Shown here piece after piece: positions 1 through 8,640 of a stretch of 64,000 nucleotides of DNA (positions are counted from its first letter, which is position 1; each line of letters starts with the position of its first letter). Under the pieces are notes generated by a model. That model was not told the origin of the DNA and searched no databases. It worked only from the letters and a program-made list of their open reading frames with translations. This stretch comes from Escherichia coli. Its GTDB lineage: Bacteria; Pseudomonadota; Gammaproteobacteria; Enterobacterales; Enterobacteriaceae. The stretch lies in assembly GCF_048403405.1 (NCBI RefSeq), contig NZ_CP183129.1, one strand, 5' to 3'. Position numbers and translations under genes: made by a program.

Positions 1-1862
1 TGAATGGTGTCACGCCGCCAGCGGTGCAGCACCTGACCGCCGAAGTCACCGCAGACAGCGGGGAATATCAGGTGCTGGCGCGCTGGGACACGCCGAAGGT
101 GGTGAAGGGCGTGAGCTTCCTGCTCCGTCTGACCGTAACAGCGGATGACGGCAGTGAGCGGCTGGTCAGCACGGCCCGGACGGCGGAAACCACTTACCGC
201 TTCAGGCAGCTGGCGCTGGGGCGTTACACGCTGACGGTCCGGGCGGTAAATGCCCGGGGACAGCAGGGCGATCCGGCGTCGGTATCGTTCCGGATTAACG
301 CACCTGCAAAACCCGCCACCATTGAGCTGACGCCGGGGTATTTTCAGATAACGGCGGTCCCGCGTCTTGCGGTGTATGACCCGACGGTACAGTTTGAATT
401 CTGGTTCTCAGAAAAACGCATCACGAACACAGCACAGGTGGAAAAATCTGCCCGTTATCTGGGGACCGGCAGTCAGTGGACTGTCCAGGGGAGCCGGATT
501 AAGCCGGGGACGGATTTCTGGTTTTACGTGCGAAGCGTCAACCTGGTGGGAAAATCTGCTTTTGTGGAAGCCAGCGGGCAGCCCAGCAATGATGGTGAAG
601 GGTATCTGGAAATTTTCCGGGGGCTGATAGATGAGACGCTTCTGGGCCAGGCACTGAAAGAGCGCATTGATGCTTCAGCGCTGCGTACGGAGGTCACGCA
701 ACTGGAAGAAGACATCCGTCAGCGGATGGACACGGATATCGCAGAAGTGACCCGGAAAATCGGGAAGGCGGAAAACAGCCTCACGCAGCTGGTTGCGAAA
801 AAGAATGAGGACCAGACACTGGCCATCGCGCAGGTGAGCCAGAAAGTGGACCGGGTGAGCAGTGAAATCTCACAGACTGTCAGCCAGGGGCAGTCAGAAA
901 ACGCCCGACAGATAGCACAGGTCCGCCAGTACGTGGATAAAAAAGGGAGTGAAATTACCTCGACCACGGATAAAAAGCTGGGTGACCAGGCCGTGACCAT
1001 ACAGCAAATCCAGCGGGTTCAGTCAGACACGCGCAATGAGCTGAATGCCATGTATATGCTGAAGGTGCAGAAAACAAAAAACGGTATTCCCTATGTGGCC
1101 GGGATTGGCGCGGGGATTGAGGATGTTGATGGTCAGACCCTGAGTAACATTCTGCTGCAGGCCGATCGCATTGCGATGATTACCCCGGAGAACGGCAACA
1201 CCACGCCGCTGTTTGTGGCGCAGGGGAATCAGCTGTTCATGAACGACGTGTTCCTGAAGCGACTGTTTGCGGTGAGCATCACGTCATCCGGCAATCCTCC
1301 GACGTTTTCCCTGACGCCGGATGGCAGGCTGACAGCCCGCAATGCGGATATCAGTGGAGCCATCATGGCGAATACCGGCACGCTCAATAATGTCACCATT
1401 AACAAGAACTGTGTCATCAGAGGGAAACTGTCTGCAAACCAGATTGAAGGCGATCTCGTTAAAACAGTGGGTAAGGCTTTCCCTCGTGACTCCCGTGCAC
1501 CGAAGCGTTGGCCATCAGGAACCATTACCGTCAGGGTTTATGACGATCAGCCGTTTAACCGGCAGATTGTTATTCCGGCGGTGGCTTTCAGCGGTGCCAG
1601 ACATGAGCGGGAGAACAGCGATACTTATTCGTCATGCCGCCTGATAGTGAAGAAAAACGGTGCTGAAATTTATAACCGTACCGCGATGGATAATACGCTG
1701 GTTTACAGTGGTGTTATTGATATGCCTGCTGGTCGCGGCGACATGACGCTGGAGTTTTCTGTATCAGCATGGTGGGTAAATGGCTGGTATCCCACAGCAA
1801 GTATCAGCGATTTGCTGGTTGTTGTGATGAAGAAAGCCACTGCAGGCATCACGATTAGCTGA
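1..1862 (+). CDS. J: Tail tip/host-specificity protein J, C-terminal part (5' end upstream of window)
   Basis: Open frame runs in from the window edge (track ORF 24..1862); translation resembles lambda gpJ-family; followed by lom. Confidence 0.85.
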
Positions 1863-1881
1863 ATTTTATAACCCATATACG

Positions 1882-1906
1882 GGCGCCAGAAATGGCGCCT
1901 TTTTTA
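1882..1906 (+). terminator. Intrinsic terminator after J
   Basis: GC hairpin GGCGCC-N6-GGCGCC followed by a T-run. Confidence 0.6.
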
Positions 1907-1929
1907 TTGCAGAAAAGCGAGAGGTAATT

Positions 1930-2529
1930 ATGCGTAAATTATGTGCAGCCATTTTGTCCGCAGCCATCTGTCTGTCCGTATCCGGTGCGCCTGCATGGGC
2001 GTCTGAACATCAGTCCACACTGAGCGCGGGGTATCTTCATGCCCGTACGAACGCTCCCGGCAGCGATAATCTGAACGGGATTAACGTGAAATACCGTTAT
2101 GAGTTTACGGACGCGCTGGGGCTGATTACGTCCTTCAGTTATGCCAATGCTGAGGATGAGCAAAAAACGCACTACAGCGATACCCGCTGGCATGAAGATT
2201 CCGTGCGTAACCGCTGGTTCAGCGTGATGGCGGGGCCGTCTGTACGCGTGAATGAATGGTTCAGCGCGTATGCGATGGTGGGTGTGGCTTACAGCCGTGT
2301 GTCGACTTTCTCCGGGGATTATCTCCGCGTAACTGACAACAAGGGGAAAACGCACGATGTGCTGACCGGAAGTGATGACGGTCGCCACAGCAACACGTCT
2401 CTGGCGTGGGGGGCTGGCGTGCAGTTTAACCCGACCGAATCCGTAACCATTGACCTTGCTTATGAAGGTTCCGGTAGTGGCGACTGGCGAACGGATGCAT
2501 TTATTGTTGGTATCGGATACCGTTTCTGA
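1930..2529 (+). CDS. lom: Lom/Ail/PagC-family outer-membrane protein (phage moron)
   Basis: 199 aa with N-terminal signal peptide; INVKYRYE and C-terminal YEGSGSGDWRTD..GYRF motifs as in lambda Lom. Confidence 0.9.
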   Translation: MRKLCAAILSAAICLSVSGAPAWASEHQSTLSAGYLHARTNAPGSDNLNGINVKYRYEFTDALGLITSFSYANAEDEQKTHYSDTRWHEDSVRNRWFSVMAGPSVRVNEWFSAYAMVGVAYSRVSTFSGDYLRVTDNKGKTHDVLTGSDDGRHSNTSLAWGAGVQFNPTESVTIDLAYEGSGSGDWRTDAFIVGIGYRF

Positions 2530-2635
2530 CAACAGACGCCGATTTATCTTCTGTAAATATTGTTATGATACGCAGGTTCATCCACCTTATGGGGTGAACT
2601 GCGTTTGAGGAAACGTAAAGTTACACTGTCCTGAA

Positions 2636-2667
2636 GCCCGTGGCGTCACTGCTGCGGGCTTTTTTTA
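2636..2667 (+). terminator. Intrinsic terminator after lom
   Basis: Hairpin AAGCCCG..CGGGCTT followed by TTTTTTT. Confidence 0.6.
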
Positions 2668-2680
2668 TTGGTGGAAAAGT

Positions 2681-5600
2681 ATGACAGTAAAAATTTCTGG
2701 CGTGCTTAAAGATGGCACAGGAAAACCAGTACAGAACTGCACCATTGTGCTGAAGGCCAGACGAACCAGCAGCACGGTGGTGGTGAACACGGTGGCCTCT
2801 GAAAATCCGGATGAAGCCGGACGTTACAGCATGGATGTTGAGCATGGCCAGTACAGCGTCACCCTGCTGGTTGAAGGTTTTCCGCCTTCACATGCCGGGA
2901 CCATTACCGTCTATGAAGGTTCCAGACCAGGTACGCTGAATGATTTTCTCGGTGCCATGACGGAGGATGATGTCCGACCGGAGGCACTGCGCCGCTTTGA
3001 GCAGATGGTGGAAGAGGTGTCACGTAACGCCTCCGCGGTTGCACAGAATACGGCAGCCGCGAAAAAATCAGCCAGCGATGCCAGTGCATCAGCCAGCGAG
3101 GCGGCAACTCATGCAACCGATGCTGCAGCCTCAGCACGTGCCGCCAGCACGTCAGCCGGACAGGCCGCGTCGTCGGCTCAGTCAGCGTCTTCCAGCGCAG
3201 GAACGGCATCGACAAAGGCCCGTGAAGCAGCAAAAAGTGCTGCTGCTGCAGAGTCATCAAAAAGCGCGGCAGCTACCAGCGCCAGTGCCGCGAAAACGTC
3301 AGAAACGAATGCCGCAGCATCACAAAAATCGGCAGCCACTTCTGCATCCACAGCGACCATGAAGGCGTCAGAAGCTGCCACCTCGGCACGGGGTGCGGCG
3401 GCCTCAAAAGAGGCAGCGAAATCTTCAGAAACGAATGCATCATCAAGTGCCAGTAGTGCAGCTTCCTCGGCAACGGCGGCAGGAAATTCCGCGAAGGCGG
3501 CAAAAACGTCCGAGACGAACGCTAAGTCTTCTGAAACAGCAGCGGGACAGAGCGCCTCAGCTGCGGCAGGTTCAAAAACAGCGGCTGCATTATCTGCCAG
3601 TGCCGCGTCAACAAGTGCCGGGCAGGCCTCAGCCAGTGCCACCGCCGCCGGAAAATCGGCAGAAAGCGCCGCATCATCCGCTTCAACAGCCACAACGAAG
3701 GCTGGCAAAGCCACTGAGCAAGCCACTGCAGCAGCGAGGTCTGCTTCTGCAGCAAAAACCTCTGAAACAAATGCAAAGACTTCAGCAGACAATGCTGCTT
3801 CCTCTAAGGCGGCAGCCGCATCGTCAGCCAGTTCAGCGGCGTCATCGGCATCATCTGCGTCTGCTTCAAAAGATGAGGCGACCAGACAAGCGTCAGCAGC
3901 GAAAGGTAGTGCCACGACAGCAACAACGAAAGCATCAGAGGCGGCAGGCAGTGCGACGGCTGCATCTCAGAGCAAAGTTGCTGCTGAATCCGCGGCAACG
4001 CGCGCCGAGACAGCAGCAAAACGGGCAGAGGATATTGCATCCGCCGTGGCGCTGGAGGATGCGAGCACGACGAAAAAGGGGATAGTACAGCTCAGCAGTG
4101 CAACAAACAGCACCAGTGAAAAGCTGGCGGCAACGCCAAAGGCAGTTAAAACTGTTAAAGATAGTTCAGTTCAAAAAACTGGCGACACAATGGGAGGGCA
4201 GTTAAAAATCAGCACGATAAATGCTCTTCGAATATTCAACCAAGCCTTTGGCCTTATTTTTAGGCGTTCCGAAGATCATCTTCATCTTATTCCGACTAAT
4301 GAAGGGGAGGGGGAAAATGGAGACATCGGTTCATTAAGACCATTCTCTATAAACTTAAGATCAGGGTTGGTGTCCATCGGTAATGGACTAAAAGTTGGTG
4401 GTAGTGTTACTGGTAATTTGACCGGAAACGCAGATACTGCGACCAAGATCAAGACAGCACGTAAGATTGGGGGCGTGGCATTTGATGGATCGGCAGATAT
4501 CAACTTGCCTGGAGTCAACGCTACCGGTAATCAAAACACTACAGGTAATGCTGCGACCGCCACGAAACTTCAGGCAGCCAGAACGATTAACGGTGTGTCA
4601 TTTGATGGTAGTGCAAATATCACATTGACCCCTTCAAATATTGGGGCATTGGCATTAACTGGAGGGACTCTTTCAGGTGGTTTAACTGCTGCTGGTGAGG
4701 TTATTTCAAGGTCAGCAAATGGTCTGCGTATTGCCTATGGCAACTATGGATTCTTTATCCGAAATGATGGATCAAACACATATTTTATGTTGACAGATTC
4801 GGGTAACAGTCTTGGTACGCACAATAGCTTAAGGCCGTTTATAATTAGTAACCATACTGGCAATGTTACAATTGCAACTAAATTAAACGCGAGTGGTGGT
4901 ATCACTGGATCTTTATCGGGTAATGCAAGCACAGCAACCAAATTGCAAACTGCAAGGACAATTAACGGCGTAAAATTTGACGGCTCGGCAAATATTGAAG
5001 CGTTTCCGCCAGGTGTTCCGCTGCCGTGGCCATCAGATACACCACCTGCAGGTTATGCGATCATGCAGGGGCAGACGTTTGATAAGGCAGCATATCCGAA
5101 ACTGGCTATTGCCTATCCTTCAGGTGTTATTCCAGATATGCGCGGCTGGACAATCAAGGGCAAACCCGCCAGTGGCCGGGCCGTATTGTCTCAGGAACAG
5201 GACGGCATAAAATCGCACACCCACAGCGCCAGCGCATCCAGTACGGATTTGGGGACGAAAACCACATCGTCGTTTGATTACGGCACTAAATCCACGAATA
5301 ACACCGGGGCGCATACGCACAGTCTGAGTGGCTCTACGGGGTCTGCCGGTGTTCATACTCATGGTAATGGTATTCGTTGGCCAGGAGGCGGCGGTTCTGC
5401 GTTAGCATTTTATGATGGCGGTGGGTTCACTTATGTCCAGAATTCACAGTATCAAGTAAGCCCGGAGACTTCTTCCTATAGATCGTATTATCAACGTATT
5501 CAGACACAGTCAGCAGGTGCTCATACCCACTCGCTGTCTGGTACTGCAGCAAGTTCTGGCGCACATGCACATACTGTAGGTATTGGTGCGCATACGCACT

Positions 5601-5707
5601 CCGTTGCGATTGGTTCACATGGACACACCATCACCGTTAACGCTGCGGGTAACGCGGAAAACACCGTCAAAAACATCGCATTTAACTATATTGTGAGGCT
5701 TGCATAA
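2681..5707 (+). CDS. stf: Side tail fibre protein
   Basis: 1008 aa; N-terminus [22 protein letters not shown] and C-terminus ..[11 protein letters not shown] match lambda Stf as recalled; stop overlaps tfa start (TAATG). Confidence 0.9.
3040..4060. repeat. GC-rich Ala/Ser-rich repetitive coding region inside stf with recurring AAKTSETNA units
   Basis: Near-identical DNA blocks (..aaaacgtcagaaacgaatgc..) recur at ~3293, 3418, 3498, 3751. Confidence 0.7.
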
Positions 5708-6291
5708 TGGCATTCAGAATGAGTGAACAAGCACGGACCATAAAAATTTATAATCTGCTGGCCGGAACTAATGAATTTATTGGTGAAGGTGACGCATATA
5801 TTCCGCCTCATACAGGTCTGCCAGCAAACAGTACCGATATTGCACCACCAGATATTCCTGCTGGCTTTGTGGCTGTTTTCAACAGTGATGAGGCATCGTG
5901 GCATCTCGTTGAAGACCATCGGGGGAAAACGGTTTATGACGTAGCGTCAGGGGACGAGTTATTTATTTCTGAACTCGGTCCGTTACCGGAAAATGTTACC
6001 TGGTTATCGCCGGAAGGGGAGTTTCAGAAGTGGAACGGCACAGCCTGGGTGAAGGATACGGAAGCAGAAAAACTGTTCCGGATCCGGGAGGCGGAAGAAA
6101 CAAAAAACAACCTGATGCAGGTAGCCAGTGAGCATATTGCGCCGCTTCAGGATGCTGCAGATCTGGAAATTGCAACGGAGGAAGAAACCTCATTGCTGGA
6201 AGCCTGGAAAAAGTATCGGGTGTTGCTGAACCGTGTTGATACATCAACTGCACCTGATATTGAGTGGCCTACGAACCCTGTCAGGGAGTAA
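5707..6291 (+). CDS. tfa: Tail fibre assembly protein
   Basis: 194 aa; [38 protein letters not shown] matches lambda Tfa as recalled. Confidence 0.9.
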
Positions 6292-6342
6292 TCATTGGGA
6301 TTATGCCGCAGCACGTCTTAAGCAAGAACGTGCTGCGGTTGG
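6131..6342 (+). repeat. Direct repeat copy 1: tfa 3' end plus downstream 11-bp-stem palindrome
   Basis: About 210 bp repeated at 7182..7391; last ~95 bp nearly identical by eye. Confidence 0.85.
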
Positions 6343-6345
6343 ATG

Positions 6346-7014
6346 CTATTTTTTCCCTGAAGCGGAAAACATTACTACAGTACCTTGAACCTTGGTTTTA
6401 ACATTCTCGAAATGCTCTGAGAGTATATGTGTTAAGCCTTCTTCGGAATCTTTTGTGTTTGAAAAGATGCCTTTCTGATTGTAAATGCGCATCAGTTTTT
6501 GACCGAAGCTATTGTGCACAACTCCATCGCCAAGAATTGTGGCTCCGTATAGAGTTCCATCGTCAGTTAAGGCCTGCGCCGCATTGCGTATTACACAGCT
6601 TTTTGTAGATATATTTCCAGGCAGGCAGTGAAGAAGGTAAAACATGGAAATGGAATCAAATTGACCATGTAACGCCGCGGGATAAGGTTCAAAAACATCA
6701 TGGCTAATTTTATGTTTAATTTTTGATTCCCCAGCCCTTGTAGATGCCGCGTTCAGGCTAGCTTCGTTCAAATCCATTAAAGATATCAGACTACTCTCAG
6801 GTACGTGAGTAAGGTAAAACCCAGTTCCAACACCAATATCCAGATGGTTGTTACCTACATGTTCCAGAAAGTGTGGAAGAAGGTGTTCCTTTGTAGGACA
6901 TCCCCATGCAAGCCGATTTGATACTCCCAAAACCCACCAGTCATAAAGCTTTAGGGTAAGTGGTGTGTAAATTTTAGCCCCATCATCTGTGTTTTTTTTC
7001 ATTGATTTCACCAT
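6346..7014 (-). CDS. Class I SAM-dependent methyltransferase, substrate unknown (prophage cargo gene)
   Basis: Rossmann motif I LDIGVGTG and downstream acidic residue (LMDLNE); AT-rich by eye; a second ATG 4 codons in (MKKNT, end 7002) has the better SD (GGTGA). Confidence 0.7.
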   Translation of the reverse strand: MVKSMKKNTDDGAKIYTPLTLKLYDWWVLGVSNRLAWGCPTKEHLLPHFLEHVGNNHLDIGVGTGFYLTHVPESSLISLMDLNEASLNAASTRAGESKIKHKISHDVFEPYPAALHGQFDSISMFYLLHCLPGNISTKSCVIRNAAQALTDDGTLYGATILGDGVVHNSFGQKLMRIYNQKGIFSNTKDSEEGLTHILSEHFENVKTKVQGTVVMFSASGKK

Positions 7015-7070
7015 GTTATAGTTTTATTTGTGAATTAAATCAATTATGGCGATGAATTACAAGGGGTTAA

Positions 7071-7340
7071 ATGCTGCCGCAGCATAGCGATATTGAAATA
7101 GCCTGGTATGCTTCGATACAGCAGGAGCCGAATGGCTGGAAGACCGTCACCACACAGTTCTACATCCAGGAATTCAGTGAGTATATTGCGCCACTGCAGG
7201 ATGCTGTAGATCTGGAAATCGCAACGGAGGAAGAAAGATCGTTGCTGGAGGCATGGAATAAATATCGGGTATTGTTGAATCGTGTTGATACATCAACTGC
7301 ACCTGATATTGAGTGGCCTGCAAATCCTGTCAGGGAGTAA
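7071..7340 (+). pseudogene. tfa remnant: C-terminal ~55 codons of a tail fibre assembly gene fused to an unrelated N-terminus
   Basis: C-terminal translation ..[51 protein letters not shown] parallels the Tfa C-terminus. Confidence 0.55.
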
Positions 7341-7391
7341 TCATTGGGATTATGCCGCAGCACGTCTTAAGCAAGAACGTGCTGCGGTTGG
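7182..7391 (+). repeat. Direct repeat copy 2 (see 6131..6342)
   Basis: Same sequence block including the palindrome CCGCAGCACGT-N11-ACGTGCTGCGG. Confidence 0.85.
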
Positions 7392-7455
7392 CTGGTGAAC
7401 TTTCGATAGTGCGAGTATTGAATGATTTCCAGCCGTTACCGATTTTACGTGTTAA

Positions 7456-7704
7456 TTAGTGAACAAACCACTCGTCAGCAGACTCCCAGGTATCTTTCAG
7501 AGTTTCCTGAACAAAAGTTTTAGCTGAATCTTTATCGGCGGTGCGCGTAACAGAAAGGCCATCGTTGCTGGTAGCTTTTACGATCACCTCTACATCGTCA
7601 TAACGTTTACTGATGCGTCGGGTTAATTCTTCCTTTAACGCATCCACAGCACCGGTTGGCATTTTAGTCATTTTTTCTTTGGCTATGCAGATTTCAATAC
7701 GCAT
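7456..7704 (-). CDS. DinI-like protein (SOS-inducible, prophage-encoded)
   Basis: 82 aa; MRIE..IAK...GA(V/I)DAL..EL.RRI and C-terminal [13 protein letters not shown] match the DinI family. Confidence 0.85.
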
Positions 7705-7719
7705 AAAAGTCCCTCTACA

Positions 7720-7735
7720 CTGTGTTTGTATACAG
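7720..7735 (-). promoter_or_regulatory. LexA box (SOS operator) ahead of the dinI-like gene
   Basis: CTGT-N8-ACAG (cactgtgtttgtatacagta) 16 bp upstream of the start codon. Confidence 0.75.
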
Positions 7736-7747
7736 TATCATTTTTAA

Positions 7748-7763
7748 CTGTATGGATAAACAG
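7748..7763 (-). promoter_or_regulatory. Second LexA box in tandem
   Basis: CTGT-atggataa-ACAG. Confidence 0.65.
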
Positions 7764-7790
7764 TGTCAAGGGTGAAGGAAAGTGATTTTT

Positions 7791-7849
7791 TGGGGCATGC
7801 ATGGGGCAAAAATATTTGTTGTGGGGCATTTTGGGGCATGATTGGGACA
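7791..7849. repeat. Array of four perfect and one degenerate TGGGGCA direct repeats near the prophage-host junction
   Basis: TGGGGCA at 7791, 7802, 7822, 7832; TTGGGACA at 7842. Confidence 0.8.
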
Positions 7850-7951
7850 CTTTGTTACATATGAACTTTGCCGATTTTTATATGACATGGAAATACAACG
7901 CTTTGATTCTTCTAAATAAAAAACATGCTCTTGGGCGTTCTTTAGTGATTT

Positions 7952-8062
7952 TTAAAAATTCCGTATCACGCAGTTAAAGTGGCGGGCATACTCTTCAAGG
8001 CTGGTGATCCCCAACCGCACCCATTTAGGATGCGACCATTGCGGCAGACCGATGTAAATCAT
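7952..8062 (-). pseudogene. yecE: Truncated yecE (first ~32 codons retained, then disrupted by the prophage)
   Basis: Minus-strand translation [32 protein letters not shown] then diverges and stops; ATG overlaps yecD stop (ATGA). Confidence 0.6.
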
Positions 8063-8640
8063 AATGCGTTGAGGATCTCTTCCACACTGCGCACACGGGC
8101 GATGCGTGGGTAGATATGGTTGATGCTGTTATTGTGCTGCTCGGCGCTGGCGGCGCTGCAGGCGTCTTCGGCAATCACCAGATTAAAACCGAGTTCCCAG
8201 GCATTGCGGGCGGTGGATTCAACACCGATATTGGTCGAGATCCCACATAATACTATTGTATCGATACCCCGGCGGCGTAATTGCAACTCCAGATCCGTAC
8301 CGTAAAACGCACCCCATTGATGTTTGATGATTTCGATATCGCTGTCGGTTGCACCTAATGCAGCAGGATGTTGCCACCAGTTTTCGGGTAACACTTTAGC
8401 AGGGGAGGGGACATCAACCGGCTGTTTTAATGCTTCGGCATAATCGGCAGACCAGCCAACGCGCACCAGAAACACGGGCTGACCGCTCGCGCGAAATTTC
8501 GCCGCCAGCTTCCCGGCGCGATTAACCACCTCATCGGCAGTATGTGGACCTCCGGCAAAAGGTAAGATGCCTTCTTGTAAATCAATCACCACCAGCGCAG
8601 TGGTTTTAGCATTAAGTTCAAGCATGATGACTCCTGACAA
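8059..8640 (-). CDS. yecD: Isochorismatase-family hydrolase YecD
   Basis: 193-aa ORF (K-12 form starts at MLELNAK, 8625); position next to aspS. Confidence 0.85.

Follow-up and report, generated by a model that had tools for sequence, protein, structure and literature searches.

The gene order tfaD(ybcX)-ybcY-tfaX, found in the cryptic prophage DLP12 of Escherichia coli K-12, is an already annotated module, and it is common, not new. The same module lies in the window, the 64-kb stretch of E. coli contig NZ_CP183129.1 analysed here, whose first 8 kb form the right-hand end of a lambda-like (lambdoid) prophage that is integrated beside yecD. In this prophage a ybcY-like methyltransferase gene is placed between the end of the tail fibre assembly gene, tfa, and a second version of that end. 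The segment 6343–7391 is very probably a cargo cassette (a 'moron') at the end of the late operon, which moves by homologous recombination via arms derived from tfa.

The tfaD'-ybcY'-tfaX-appY-ompT region of DLP12 is collinear with the window and has the same two direct tfa 3' fragments, with 97–99% identity through the tfa 3' end, a downstream hairpin, ybcY, the spacer, and the start of a chimeric open reading frame (ORF). In K-12 strain BW2952 the match is in one piece (query positions 147–1611, 96.9%), with identities of 98% in the repeat, 99% in ybcY, 98% in the spacer and 99% in the stub that begins the chimeric ORF. There are differences. In K-12 tfa is truncated at its 5' end, ybcY is frameshifted and tfaX has a stop, while the three ORFs of the window are intact. 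The match to the second repeat copy ends in K-12 after ca. 154 nt and leads into appY-ompT, while in the window this copy runs through the full hairpin and is followed by dinI. DLP12 is integrated at argU, the prophage of the window at yecD. The only literature found on ybcY or tfaX consists of gene lists, a paper on the context of OmpT, a table of RpoD sites from systematic evolution of ligands by exponential enrichment (SELEX), and Poteete et al. 2004; none of it was found to describe ybcY as a repeat-flanked cassette. Poteete et al. 2004 observed that the 3' 200 bp of lambda tfa recombines with both tfa fragments of DLP12, giving Red-dependent recombinants at each (PMC545071), so that both the pair of repeats and the fact that they can recombine had been documented before.

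Conversion modules with gtrABC or O-acetyltransferase genes, in P22-like or lambdoid prophages of Citrobacter and E. coli, have the same layout: a tail fibre or tailspike gene, cargo on the opposite strand, and a forward gene for a 79-aa protein, here called orf79. These modules lie upstream of orf79, an S24 peptidase gene and int. They have no homology to the spacer of the window at the DNA level, and their orf79 is full length and has a LexA box, whereas in the window only a 35-codon stub is present, with no LexA box. Their cargo is a membrane glycosyl- or acyl-transferase, in contrast to YbcY, a soluble methyltransferase.

The moron concept (Hendrix, Juhala) covers such cargo, and the DNA downstream of tail fibre genes is a cargo hot spot, as in the exchangeable effector loci of O157 prophages (reportedly described by Juhala et al. 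in 2000 and Tobe et al. in 2006). Like lambdoid morons, the cargo in the window is on the opposite strand, is lower in G+C content (GC) and distinct in composition, has promoter-like and hairpin elements, lies where the late operon ends, beside the attachment site, and is present or absent at the same position in near-identical phages. Classic morons reportedly have novel joints and no flanking repeats, in contrast to the cassette in the window, which carries its own tfa homology arms and can therefore be gained and lost by ordinary homologous recombination. Tail fibre and tfa modules are also said to be exchanged horizontally at conserved segments (reportedly described by Haggard-Ljungquist in 1992 and Sandmeier in 1992). 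The repeat in the window is likewise a conserved C-terminal domain, common to many Tfa families; unlike in those exchanges, the conserved segment here flanks non-tail cargo and no receptor-binding specificity is swapped.

The features of the cassette and of the resident tfa gene are as follows.

5707–6291, plus strand: tfa, full-length tail fibre assembly gene, 194 aa (phrog_105 'tail fiber assembly', E 9e-101)
6126–6342, plus strand: repeat copy 1, the last 55 codons of tfa and the downstream hairpin
6306–6338: hairpin 1, 15-bp stem with one bulge, about −23 kcal/mol
6346–7014, minus strand: gene for a ybcY-like class I S-adenosylmethionine (SAM)-dependent methyltransferase, the cargo (Pfam, phrog_2132)
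7015–7043, minus strand: putative sigma-70 promoter for ybcY, TTGATT-17-TATAAC, seen in the sequence of the 27%-GC spacer
7071–7340, plus strand: chimeric 89-codon ORF, the equivalent of tfaX
7175–7391, plus strand: repeat copy 2, left edge at ca. 7175
7355–7387: hairpin 2, identical to hairpin 1 in this window

A repeat search found a direct repeat of 231 nt (6115–6345 and 7164–7394, 90% identical, spacing 1049). By MAFFT alignment and per-base comparison the homology starts sharply at ca. 6126/7175 and ends at 6342/7391, with unrelated sequence on either side. The initial annotation had placed the two direct copies at 6131–6342 and 7182–7391, and was correct except that the true 5' edges are 5–7 nt further left; the blocks align over ca. 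217 nt, more than the ~50 bp it had set as a minimum. The copies are identical at 199 of the 217 positions (8% diverged). Their longest exact runs are 66 nt (6277–6342 = 7326–7391) and 39 nt, and the 66-nt run is the distal end, which holds the 33-nt hairpin. The palindrome that forms it, CCGCAGCACGT-N11-ACGTGCTGCGG, had been noted downstream of both copies; it has exactly two exact copies in the window, and none in 100 shuffles. Between the copies are 832 bp of unique DNA (6343–7174), close to the ~840 bp first estimated, and the opposite-strand methyltransferase predicted there is borne out by Pfam matches.

The same prophage exists with and without the cassette. A synthetic precise-deletion junction, 5707–6345 joined to 7395–7760, was searched against complete genomes and was found uninterrupted at up to 99.8% identity. 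Among the best 40 matches, 34 were in one piece (without the cassette) and 6 in two pieces (with it); the cassette-less junction is therefore in at least 34 genomes. The best match, EC190329 (locus L005), carries this prophage, likewise inserted at yecD-aspS. To the left of the cassette the two differ at 10 of 6,345 nt (window positions 1–6345, 99.84% identical), to the right they are identical (505/505, 7456–7960), and repeat copy 1 is identical at all 231 positions to the single copy in L005. The sole structural difference is a 1,049-bp block, with the join within the repeat. This is the junction that recombination between the repeats would leave, and it supports the earlier proposal that the repeats could mediate precise loss. 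Other relatives also lack the cassette: lambda has a single tfa and then the homologous hairpin, and in mEp460 a tfa remnant is followed directly by dinI. The arrangement is thus not invariant among related prophages.

Strain 09-02E (L006) has a second cassette-bearing allele of this prophage, also at this site, so that both allelic states, with and without the cassette, occur in one prophage lineage at one site. In 09-02E the copy-2 hairpin is the usual tfaX variant, CCGCAGACACGTCGTATGCAGGAACGTGCTGCGG. In at least 35 other cassette instances, too, the copy-2 hairpin is another variant such as this one, whereas in the window it has been replaced by the type found in copy 1. It follows that the two alleles change from cassette-type to resident-type sequence at different points, which suggests separate crossovers or subsequent conversion. 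Only 3 complete genomes have the exact allele of the window; strains such as 774, ECO_1_S and ECO_2_R are 100% identical to it over 7015–7470.

The ybcY gene itself is widespread: 3,798 of 5,426 complete E. coli genomes (~70%) contain it, at 4,874 sites in all and as many as four times in one genome, and identity is always at least 95%. It is also found in sequenced lambdoid phage genomes, e.g. PhiR26_1, 2G7b and ev243. A survey of 105 loci gave 83 cassette instances, across which the core (ybcY, spacer and stub) is 98–100% identical while the edges are not. Homology of the left arm to the window tfa begins at repeat position 1, 32, 57, 80 or 192 (at least five classes, which are different tfa types, homologous from different points onward), and the match of the right arm ends at position 132, 155, 197, 226 or 231 (at least five classes). 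Many left and right classes occur in combination. At the 23 positions that separate the two copies in the window, chimeric patterns of copy 1 and copy 2 are found elsewhere in both left and right copies. The initial suggestion that the cassette was acquired or exchanged by recombination at the tfa 3' end is supported by these several left tfa types and several right continuations.

In the account proposed here, three pieces of different origin make up the cassette: AT-rich ybcY with a putative sigma-70-type promoter of its own, from a family that is chromosomal in other enterobacteria; a 35-codon stub of orf79; and the last 54 codons and the hairpin of a tfa allele different from the resident one, which an old illegitimate recombination event fused to the stub. 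Because the resident tfa has this conserved C-terminal coding sequence and hairpin at its own end, the cassette is bracketed by ca. 217 bp of direct homology, 92% identical. The tfa arms would act as portable homology: crossovers in them, by RecA or phage Red, could insert the cassette into any lambdoid phage that has the conserved tfa 3' end and hairpin, with a resident DLP12-type remnant as a possible donor. A crossover between the two arms would delete exactly 1,049 bp and restore an intact tfa-hairpin-dinI junction.

Several observations weigh against this account or parts of it. The support for excision and insertion is wholly comparative. The single copy in L005 is copy-1-like throughout, including the base just past the hairpin flank, which is A (equivalent to 7392) where copy 2 of the window has C, and therefore L005 is not literally a deletion product of the window allele. 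The hairpin has no adjacent U-tract and received no call from a consensus terminator scan, so that it is at most a candidate for the cassette's own intrinsic terminator. In K-12, the same promoter hexamers in the ybcY/tfaX spacer are listed as a binding site of RpoD holoenzyme and H-NS in vitro (RpoD SELEX table, PMC3946193), and expression may therefore be silenced. Selection for the module is also not universal: ybcY is intact in 68 of the 83 instances and disrupted in 15, and the chimeric ORF, 86–106 aa in most instances, is truncated in ca. 10 of 80.

The strongest competing explanation is that the locus is a fossil scar – that one ancient illegitimate event made it, that it then spread by descent or by wholesale replacement of the tail fibre module, and that the repeats are no longer crossover sites. 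The near-clonal core (98–100%) fits the recent spread of a single ancestor, and the L005/window difference, including the base just after the hairpin and the hairpin types, is compatible with gain as well as with loss. An inert scar is nevertheless unlikely. The only structural difference between prophage ends that are 99.8–100% identical is bounded exactly by the repeats, the junction classes combine in many ways and the repeats are chimeric, two same-site cassette alleles differ only in the point at which copy 2 switches to resident sequence, and Red-mediated crossovers in these very fragments have been demonstrated (PMC545071).

Overall, the locus is judged to be a well-sampled moron of an ordinary kind, with homologous recombination as its means of movement, and current understanding is not overturned by it. 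Its value is as a clean, heavily sampled case of a phage cargo gene that gains homology arms from a conserved domain of a structural gene; with such arms it can move between prophages and be lost by homologous recombination, with neither integrase nor transposase. There is also a practical side, since recombination at the two tfa fragments can confound recombineering and assembly work in E. coli (Poteete et al. 2004, PMC545071).

The cargo ORF is 99% identical to K-12 ybcY. Phage records name this gene YbcY, and the K-12 annotation of DLP12 lists it as a class I methyltransferase with a frameshift. The Pfam matches of the cargo protein are only to Methyltransf_12, 23, 25, 11 and 31, all generic class I SAM-methyltransferases, and it is a member of phrog_2132 (E 4e-157, residues 5–222). 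The true start is probably Met5 (ATG at 7002), which would give a protein of 218 aa; Met5 is invariant among the homologues, and residue 5 is where the PHROG match starts. An AlphaFold (AF2) model has a predicted local distance difference test score (pLDDT) of 90. Closest to it in structure are phosphatidylethanolamine, juvenile-hormone-acid and natural-product methyltransferases (template modelling score, TM, 0.55–0.66), and the sequence-level hits are of the same general kind. The modelled fold resembles that of small-molecule methyltransferases, among neighbours that are generic class I enzymes and name no substrate. YbcY was also considered as a DNA methyltransferase (anti-restriction or orphan) and rejected, as it has no (D/N/S)PP(Y/F/W/H) motif and no DNA-methyltransferase Pfam match or fold neighbour. 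The PADLOC defence models gave no significant match: YbcY hit only mad2 (12.9 bits, E 0.009) and the other two proteins hit nothing; NCBIfam has no family for YbcY, Tfa, the chimeric ORF product or the 79-aa protein.

The composition of the cargo is distinct from that of the tail genes, with a GC of 41% in ybcY and 27% in the spacer compared with 48% in tfa, 52% in stf and 55% in J. The putative promoter (7043–7015, minus strand) is directly upstream of ybcY, although the consensus scan chose a weaker neighbouring match at 7070–7043. Homologues of YbcY that are 56–65% identical are encoded in Salmonella, Enterobacter and Klebsiella by stand-alone genes of the chromosome, none with a phage gene less than 4 kb away, and therefore the phage ybcY looks like a captured host gene.

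A possible but rather doubtful extension of the cassette model is that YbcY is a lysogenic-conversion enzyme – a host-derived small-molecule or lipid-type methyltransferase with its own promoter that would benefit the lysogen by modifying a component of its envelope or metabolism, with the tfa-derived arms having let ybcY spread through 70% of E. coli genomes. Susceptibility to phages or antimicrobials, for example, may be changed. Three findings are compatible with this reading. In related prophages, the slot of ybcY upstream of orf79 is held by gtrABC or an O-acetyltransferase gene. In many genomes of extraintestinal pathogenic E. coli, DLP12 is a remnant reduced to int'-tfa'-ybcY-ompT in which ybcY is intact, a context that the OmpT paper describes as well. 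The top structural neighbour of the model is a phospholipid N-methyltransferase, though the similarity is generic.

A number of reduced or rearranged loci were seen in the survey. In ATCC BAA-2469 (L121, 2301–5283), at tRNA-Arg (argU), the order is int', tfa', an intact ybcY and ompT, and tfaX is nearly all gone. An alignment of this kind (query 94–1680/1688, in three pieces, with only a methyltransferase and one tfa annotated) was the best in 9 of 60 evenly sampled genomes, of which only L121 was inspected. In NZ_CM136166.1 ybcY is split by an insertion of the insertion sequence IS1, annotated as an IS1A transposase and two methyltransferase fragments. Phage Ayreon (L106, 2786–3100) has a degraded cassette: a tfa remnant, a hairpin variant, ca. 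30 nt of the ybcY 3' end joined directly to the ybcY-tfaX spacer, and a truncated stub, with ybcY lost by internal deletion. In L009 (3659–3842), from another type of phage, the tfa 3' end, the hairpin and the first 32 nt of the ybcY 3' end are followed by unrelated DNA, which suggests that the joint between hairpin and ybcY moves as a unit. The same contig has an ORF of 349 aa resembling a DNA methylase (DPPY motif) at 5184–6233. In phage PhiR68_2 (L003, 854–2541) a PinQ/PinR-type serine recombinase gene and a ynaE-family gene are found between tfa and the ybcY cassette, and left homology to the window has shrunk to the last 40 nt, the hairpin.

The ORF at 7071–7340, in which the second repeat copy had been said to be fused to an unrelated N-terminus, is a chimera as described. 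Residues 38–89 are a Tfa C-terminus, while residues 1–37 have no Tfa match and are the 5' stub of a separate family of small prophage genes; in codons, 1–35 come from an orf79-family gene and 36–89 (54 codons) from the C-terminal domain of tfa. The ORF matches phrog_2341 over its full length, phrog_3893 (a 79-aa family of unknown function) at residues 3–37, and the Tfa families phrog_105, 188, 136, 3792 and 5572 at residues 29–87. A tblastn search with the first 38 residues found a full-length 79-aa gene in Klebsiella phages (e.g. Kp4882-3) and a degraded copy in phage Ayreon. The join at ca. 7175 is, to judge from these matches, an old scar of illegitimate recombination between an orf79-family gene and a tfa gene.

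The orf79 family is widespread in prophages of Enterobacterales. Source databases call it 'DNA polymerase V', a label that was not checked, and no Pfam domain was found in the 79-aa protein. Full-length genes are at 3004–3243 in L107, at 4001–4240 in L117, L119 and L120, and at 4001–4285 in L116. A canonical LexA box (TACTGTAT...ATACAGTA) precedes the full-length gene in all six loci examined, and an S24/UmuD-like gene follows it in five of the six (L107 and L117–L120); the family may be an uncharacterised leader gene of prophage SOS operons. The full-length copies are found just past opposite-strand conversion cargo (gtrABC, acyltransferase), near a tailspike gene. An ancestral layout of ybcY with a full-length orf79 was searched for and not found; full-length orf79 adjoins gtrABC, an acyltransferase or other cargo, with no spacer DNA in common with the window.

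It is very unlikely that the chimeric ORF encodes a functional second chaperone, a working small Tfa-like protein that aids or interferes with tail fibre assembly and makes the duplication adaptive. In most instances the ORF is intact at 86–101 aa, it has AAGGGG 4 nt before its ATG, and it makes a PHROG of its own, phrog_2341. In the passage of PMC9608196 that cites North et al. 2019, TFA proteins are described as having a conserved C-terminal domain and a variable N-terminal domain that binds the fibre. The chimeric product has the C-terminal oligomerisation domain, but in place of the variable fibre-binding domain (~130 aa) that TFA proteins require according to that passage it has just 37 unrelated residues. 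The ORF is truncated to 11–66 aa in ca. 10 of 80 instances, K-12 included, its 3' end varies by context, and the annotation pipeline PGAP calls it a tfa pseudogene in L006 and L007. The predicted tfaX promoter of K-12 overlaps the ATG, so that the start codon may escape transcription (PMC3946193).

The initial annotation had described the repeats as a duplication of the tfa 3' end. The direct homology of ca. 217 nt stands, but this is not a fresh duplication: the copies are two diverged tfa alleles that evolved as working genes. Their differences are mostly synonymous, with a non-synonymous rate (dN) of 0.046, a synonymous rate (dS) of 0.44 and a dN/dS of 0.10, which is the reason for reading them as alleles of functional genes, and 49 of 54 aligned residues are identical between the chimeric ORF and the resident Tfa C-terminus. 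The part of the coding sequence that is repeated is the conserved C-terminal helical (trimerisation/oligomerisation) domain of TFA proteins. Elsewhere copy 2 stays with the cassette regardless of the type of copy 1, and it is fully of the window type at the diagnostic positions in 36 of the 80 other cassette instances that were read through the right copy.

A duplication in situ, in which a mobile element or a replication slip doubled the resident tfa 3' end (in the manner of a target-site duplication) and the copies later drifted, is accordingly highly improbable. Such an origin would fit the direct orientation of the copies, their equal length and the perfect identity of their last 66 nt. 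However, that identity is particular to the window allele, as L006 and most instances have a different copy-2 hairpin, and the low dN/dS is expected of alleles that evolved as functional genes. A copy made in place should be closest to the local copy 1; across loci the opposite is seen, with window-type copy 2 accompanying the cassette whatever the tfa type on the left. The left edge of copy 2 is joined to foreign coding sequence, and the cassette edges have no transposase, integrase or terminal inverted repeats. An insertion sequence or transposon with a target-site duplication was rejected on similar grounds: there is no transposase, there are no inverted repeats at 6343/7174, and the repeats are 217 nt long and 8% diverged.

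A programmed, site-specific host-range switch of the Gin/Cin/Pin invertible-segment type, for which the tail fibre/tfa position would be typical and to which the pin-type recombinase between tfa and ybcY in the relative PhiR68_2 might point, has next to no probability and is refuted for the window by repeat orientation and gene content, the repeats being direct and not inverted, with no recombinase ORF between stf and yecD and no alternative stf C-terminus.

The hairpin lies 14 nt past the stop of tfa and, on the opposite strand, 7 nt past the stop of ybcY. It has about the same stability, −23 kcal/mol, on either strand (z about −3.7). An intrinsic terminator was considered for it and given no support by the scan. 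The homologous hairpin of lambda has one compensatory pair change, and a single change is too little for a covariation test. Base for base, hairpin 1 equals the one that closes the 3' end of the Rfam model CssrB (RF02799), a Shigella small RNA (sRNA), and this suggests that in Shigella a transcript ends at the hairpin. The CssrB matches in the window (6275–6337 and 7322–7386, plus strand) are partial, at ca. 33 bits compared with a gathering threshold of 76. When IMG/VR was scanned for the exact 33-nt hairpin, all 98 stretches found had a single copy and none had two, because copy 2 usually has a variant hairpin; the sample is biased to type-A copy 1 and therefore gives no allele frequencies.

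A second Rfam model, RF02111 ('IS009'), matches the 3' coding region of tfa over its full length (6050–6248, plus strand, 225 bits, gathering threshold 117) and falls just under threshold at copy 2 (7094–7297, plus strand, 112.5 bits). Since the DNA in question codes for Tfa and is under purifying selection, the match is a sign of conserved coding and no evidence for an sRNA here. The 'IS009' sRNA family appears to be the conserved C-terminal coding sequence of tfa, which would explain its presence in multiple copies in prophage regions.

The gene order around the cassette, which is based on the ORFs of the window, family profiles and the annotation of the near-identical loci L005 and L006, is as follows. 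The resident tfa gene in it is ca. 91% identical to lambda tfa (orf-194).

24–1862: 3' end of J
1930–2529: lom
2681–5707, plus strand: stf, side tail fibre gene (1008-aa ORF, annotated as prophage tail fibre in L005 and L006)
7456–7704, minus strand: DinI-like gene, right neighbour of the cassette and last prophage gene before yecD (NF007893, E 2e-20, below the curated cut-off; phrog_189)
8059–8640, minus strand: yecD, chromosomal, followed by aspS, nudB and yebC

Just upstream of the minus-strand dinI-like gene there are two LexA-box-like sites of the form CTGT-N8-ACAG (7720–7735 and 7748–7763). The window has three such sites in its 64 kb, compared with 0.7 expected, and this terminal prophage gene is probably SOS-regulated. 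Between the end of the prophage and yecD is a short pseudogene fragment (7958–8062), annotated in the equivalent loci L005 and L006, which is probably the mark of the disrupted integration target on the attR side.

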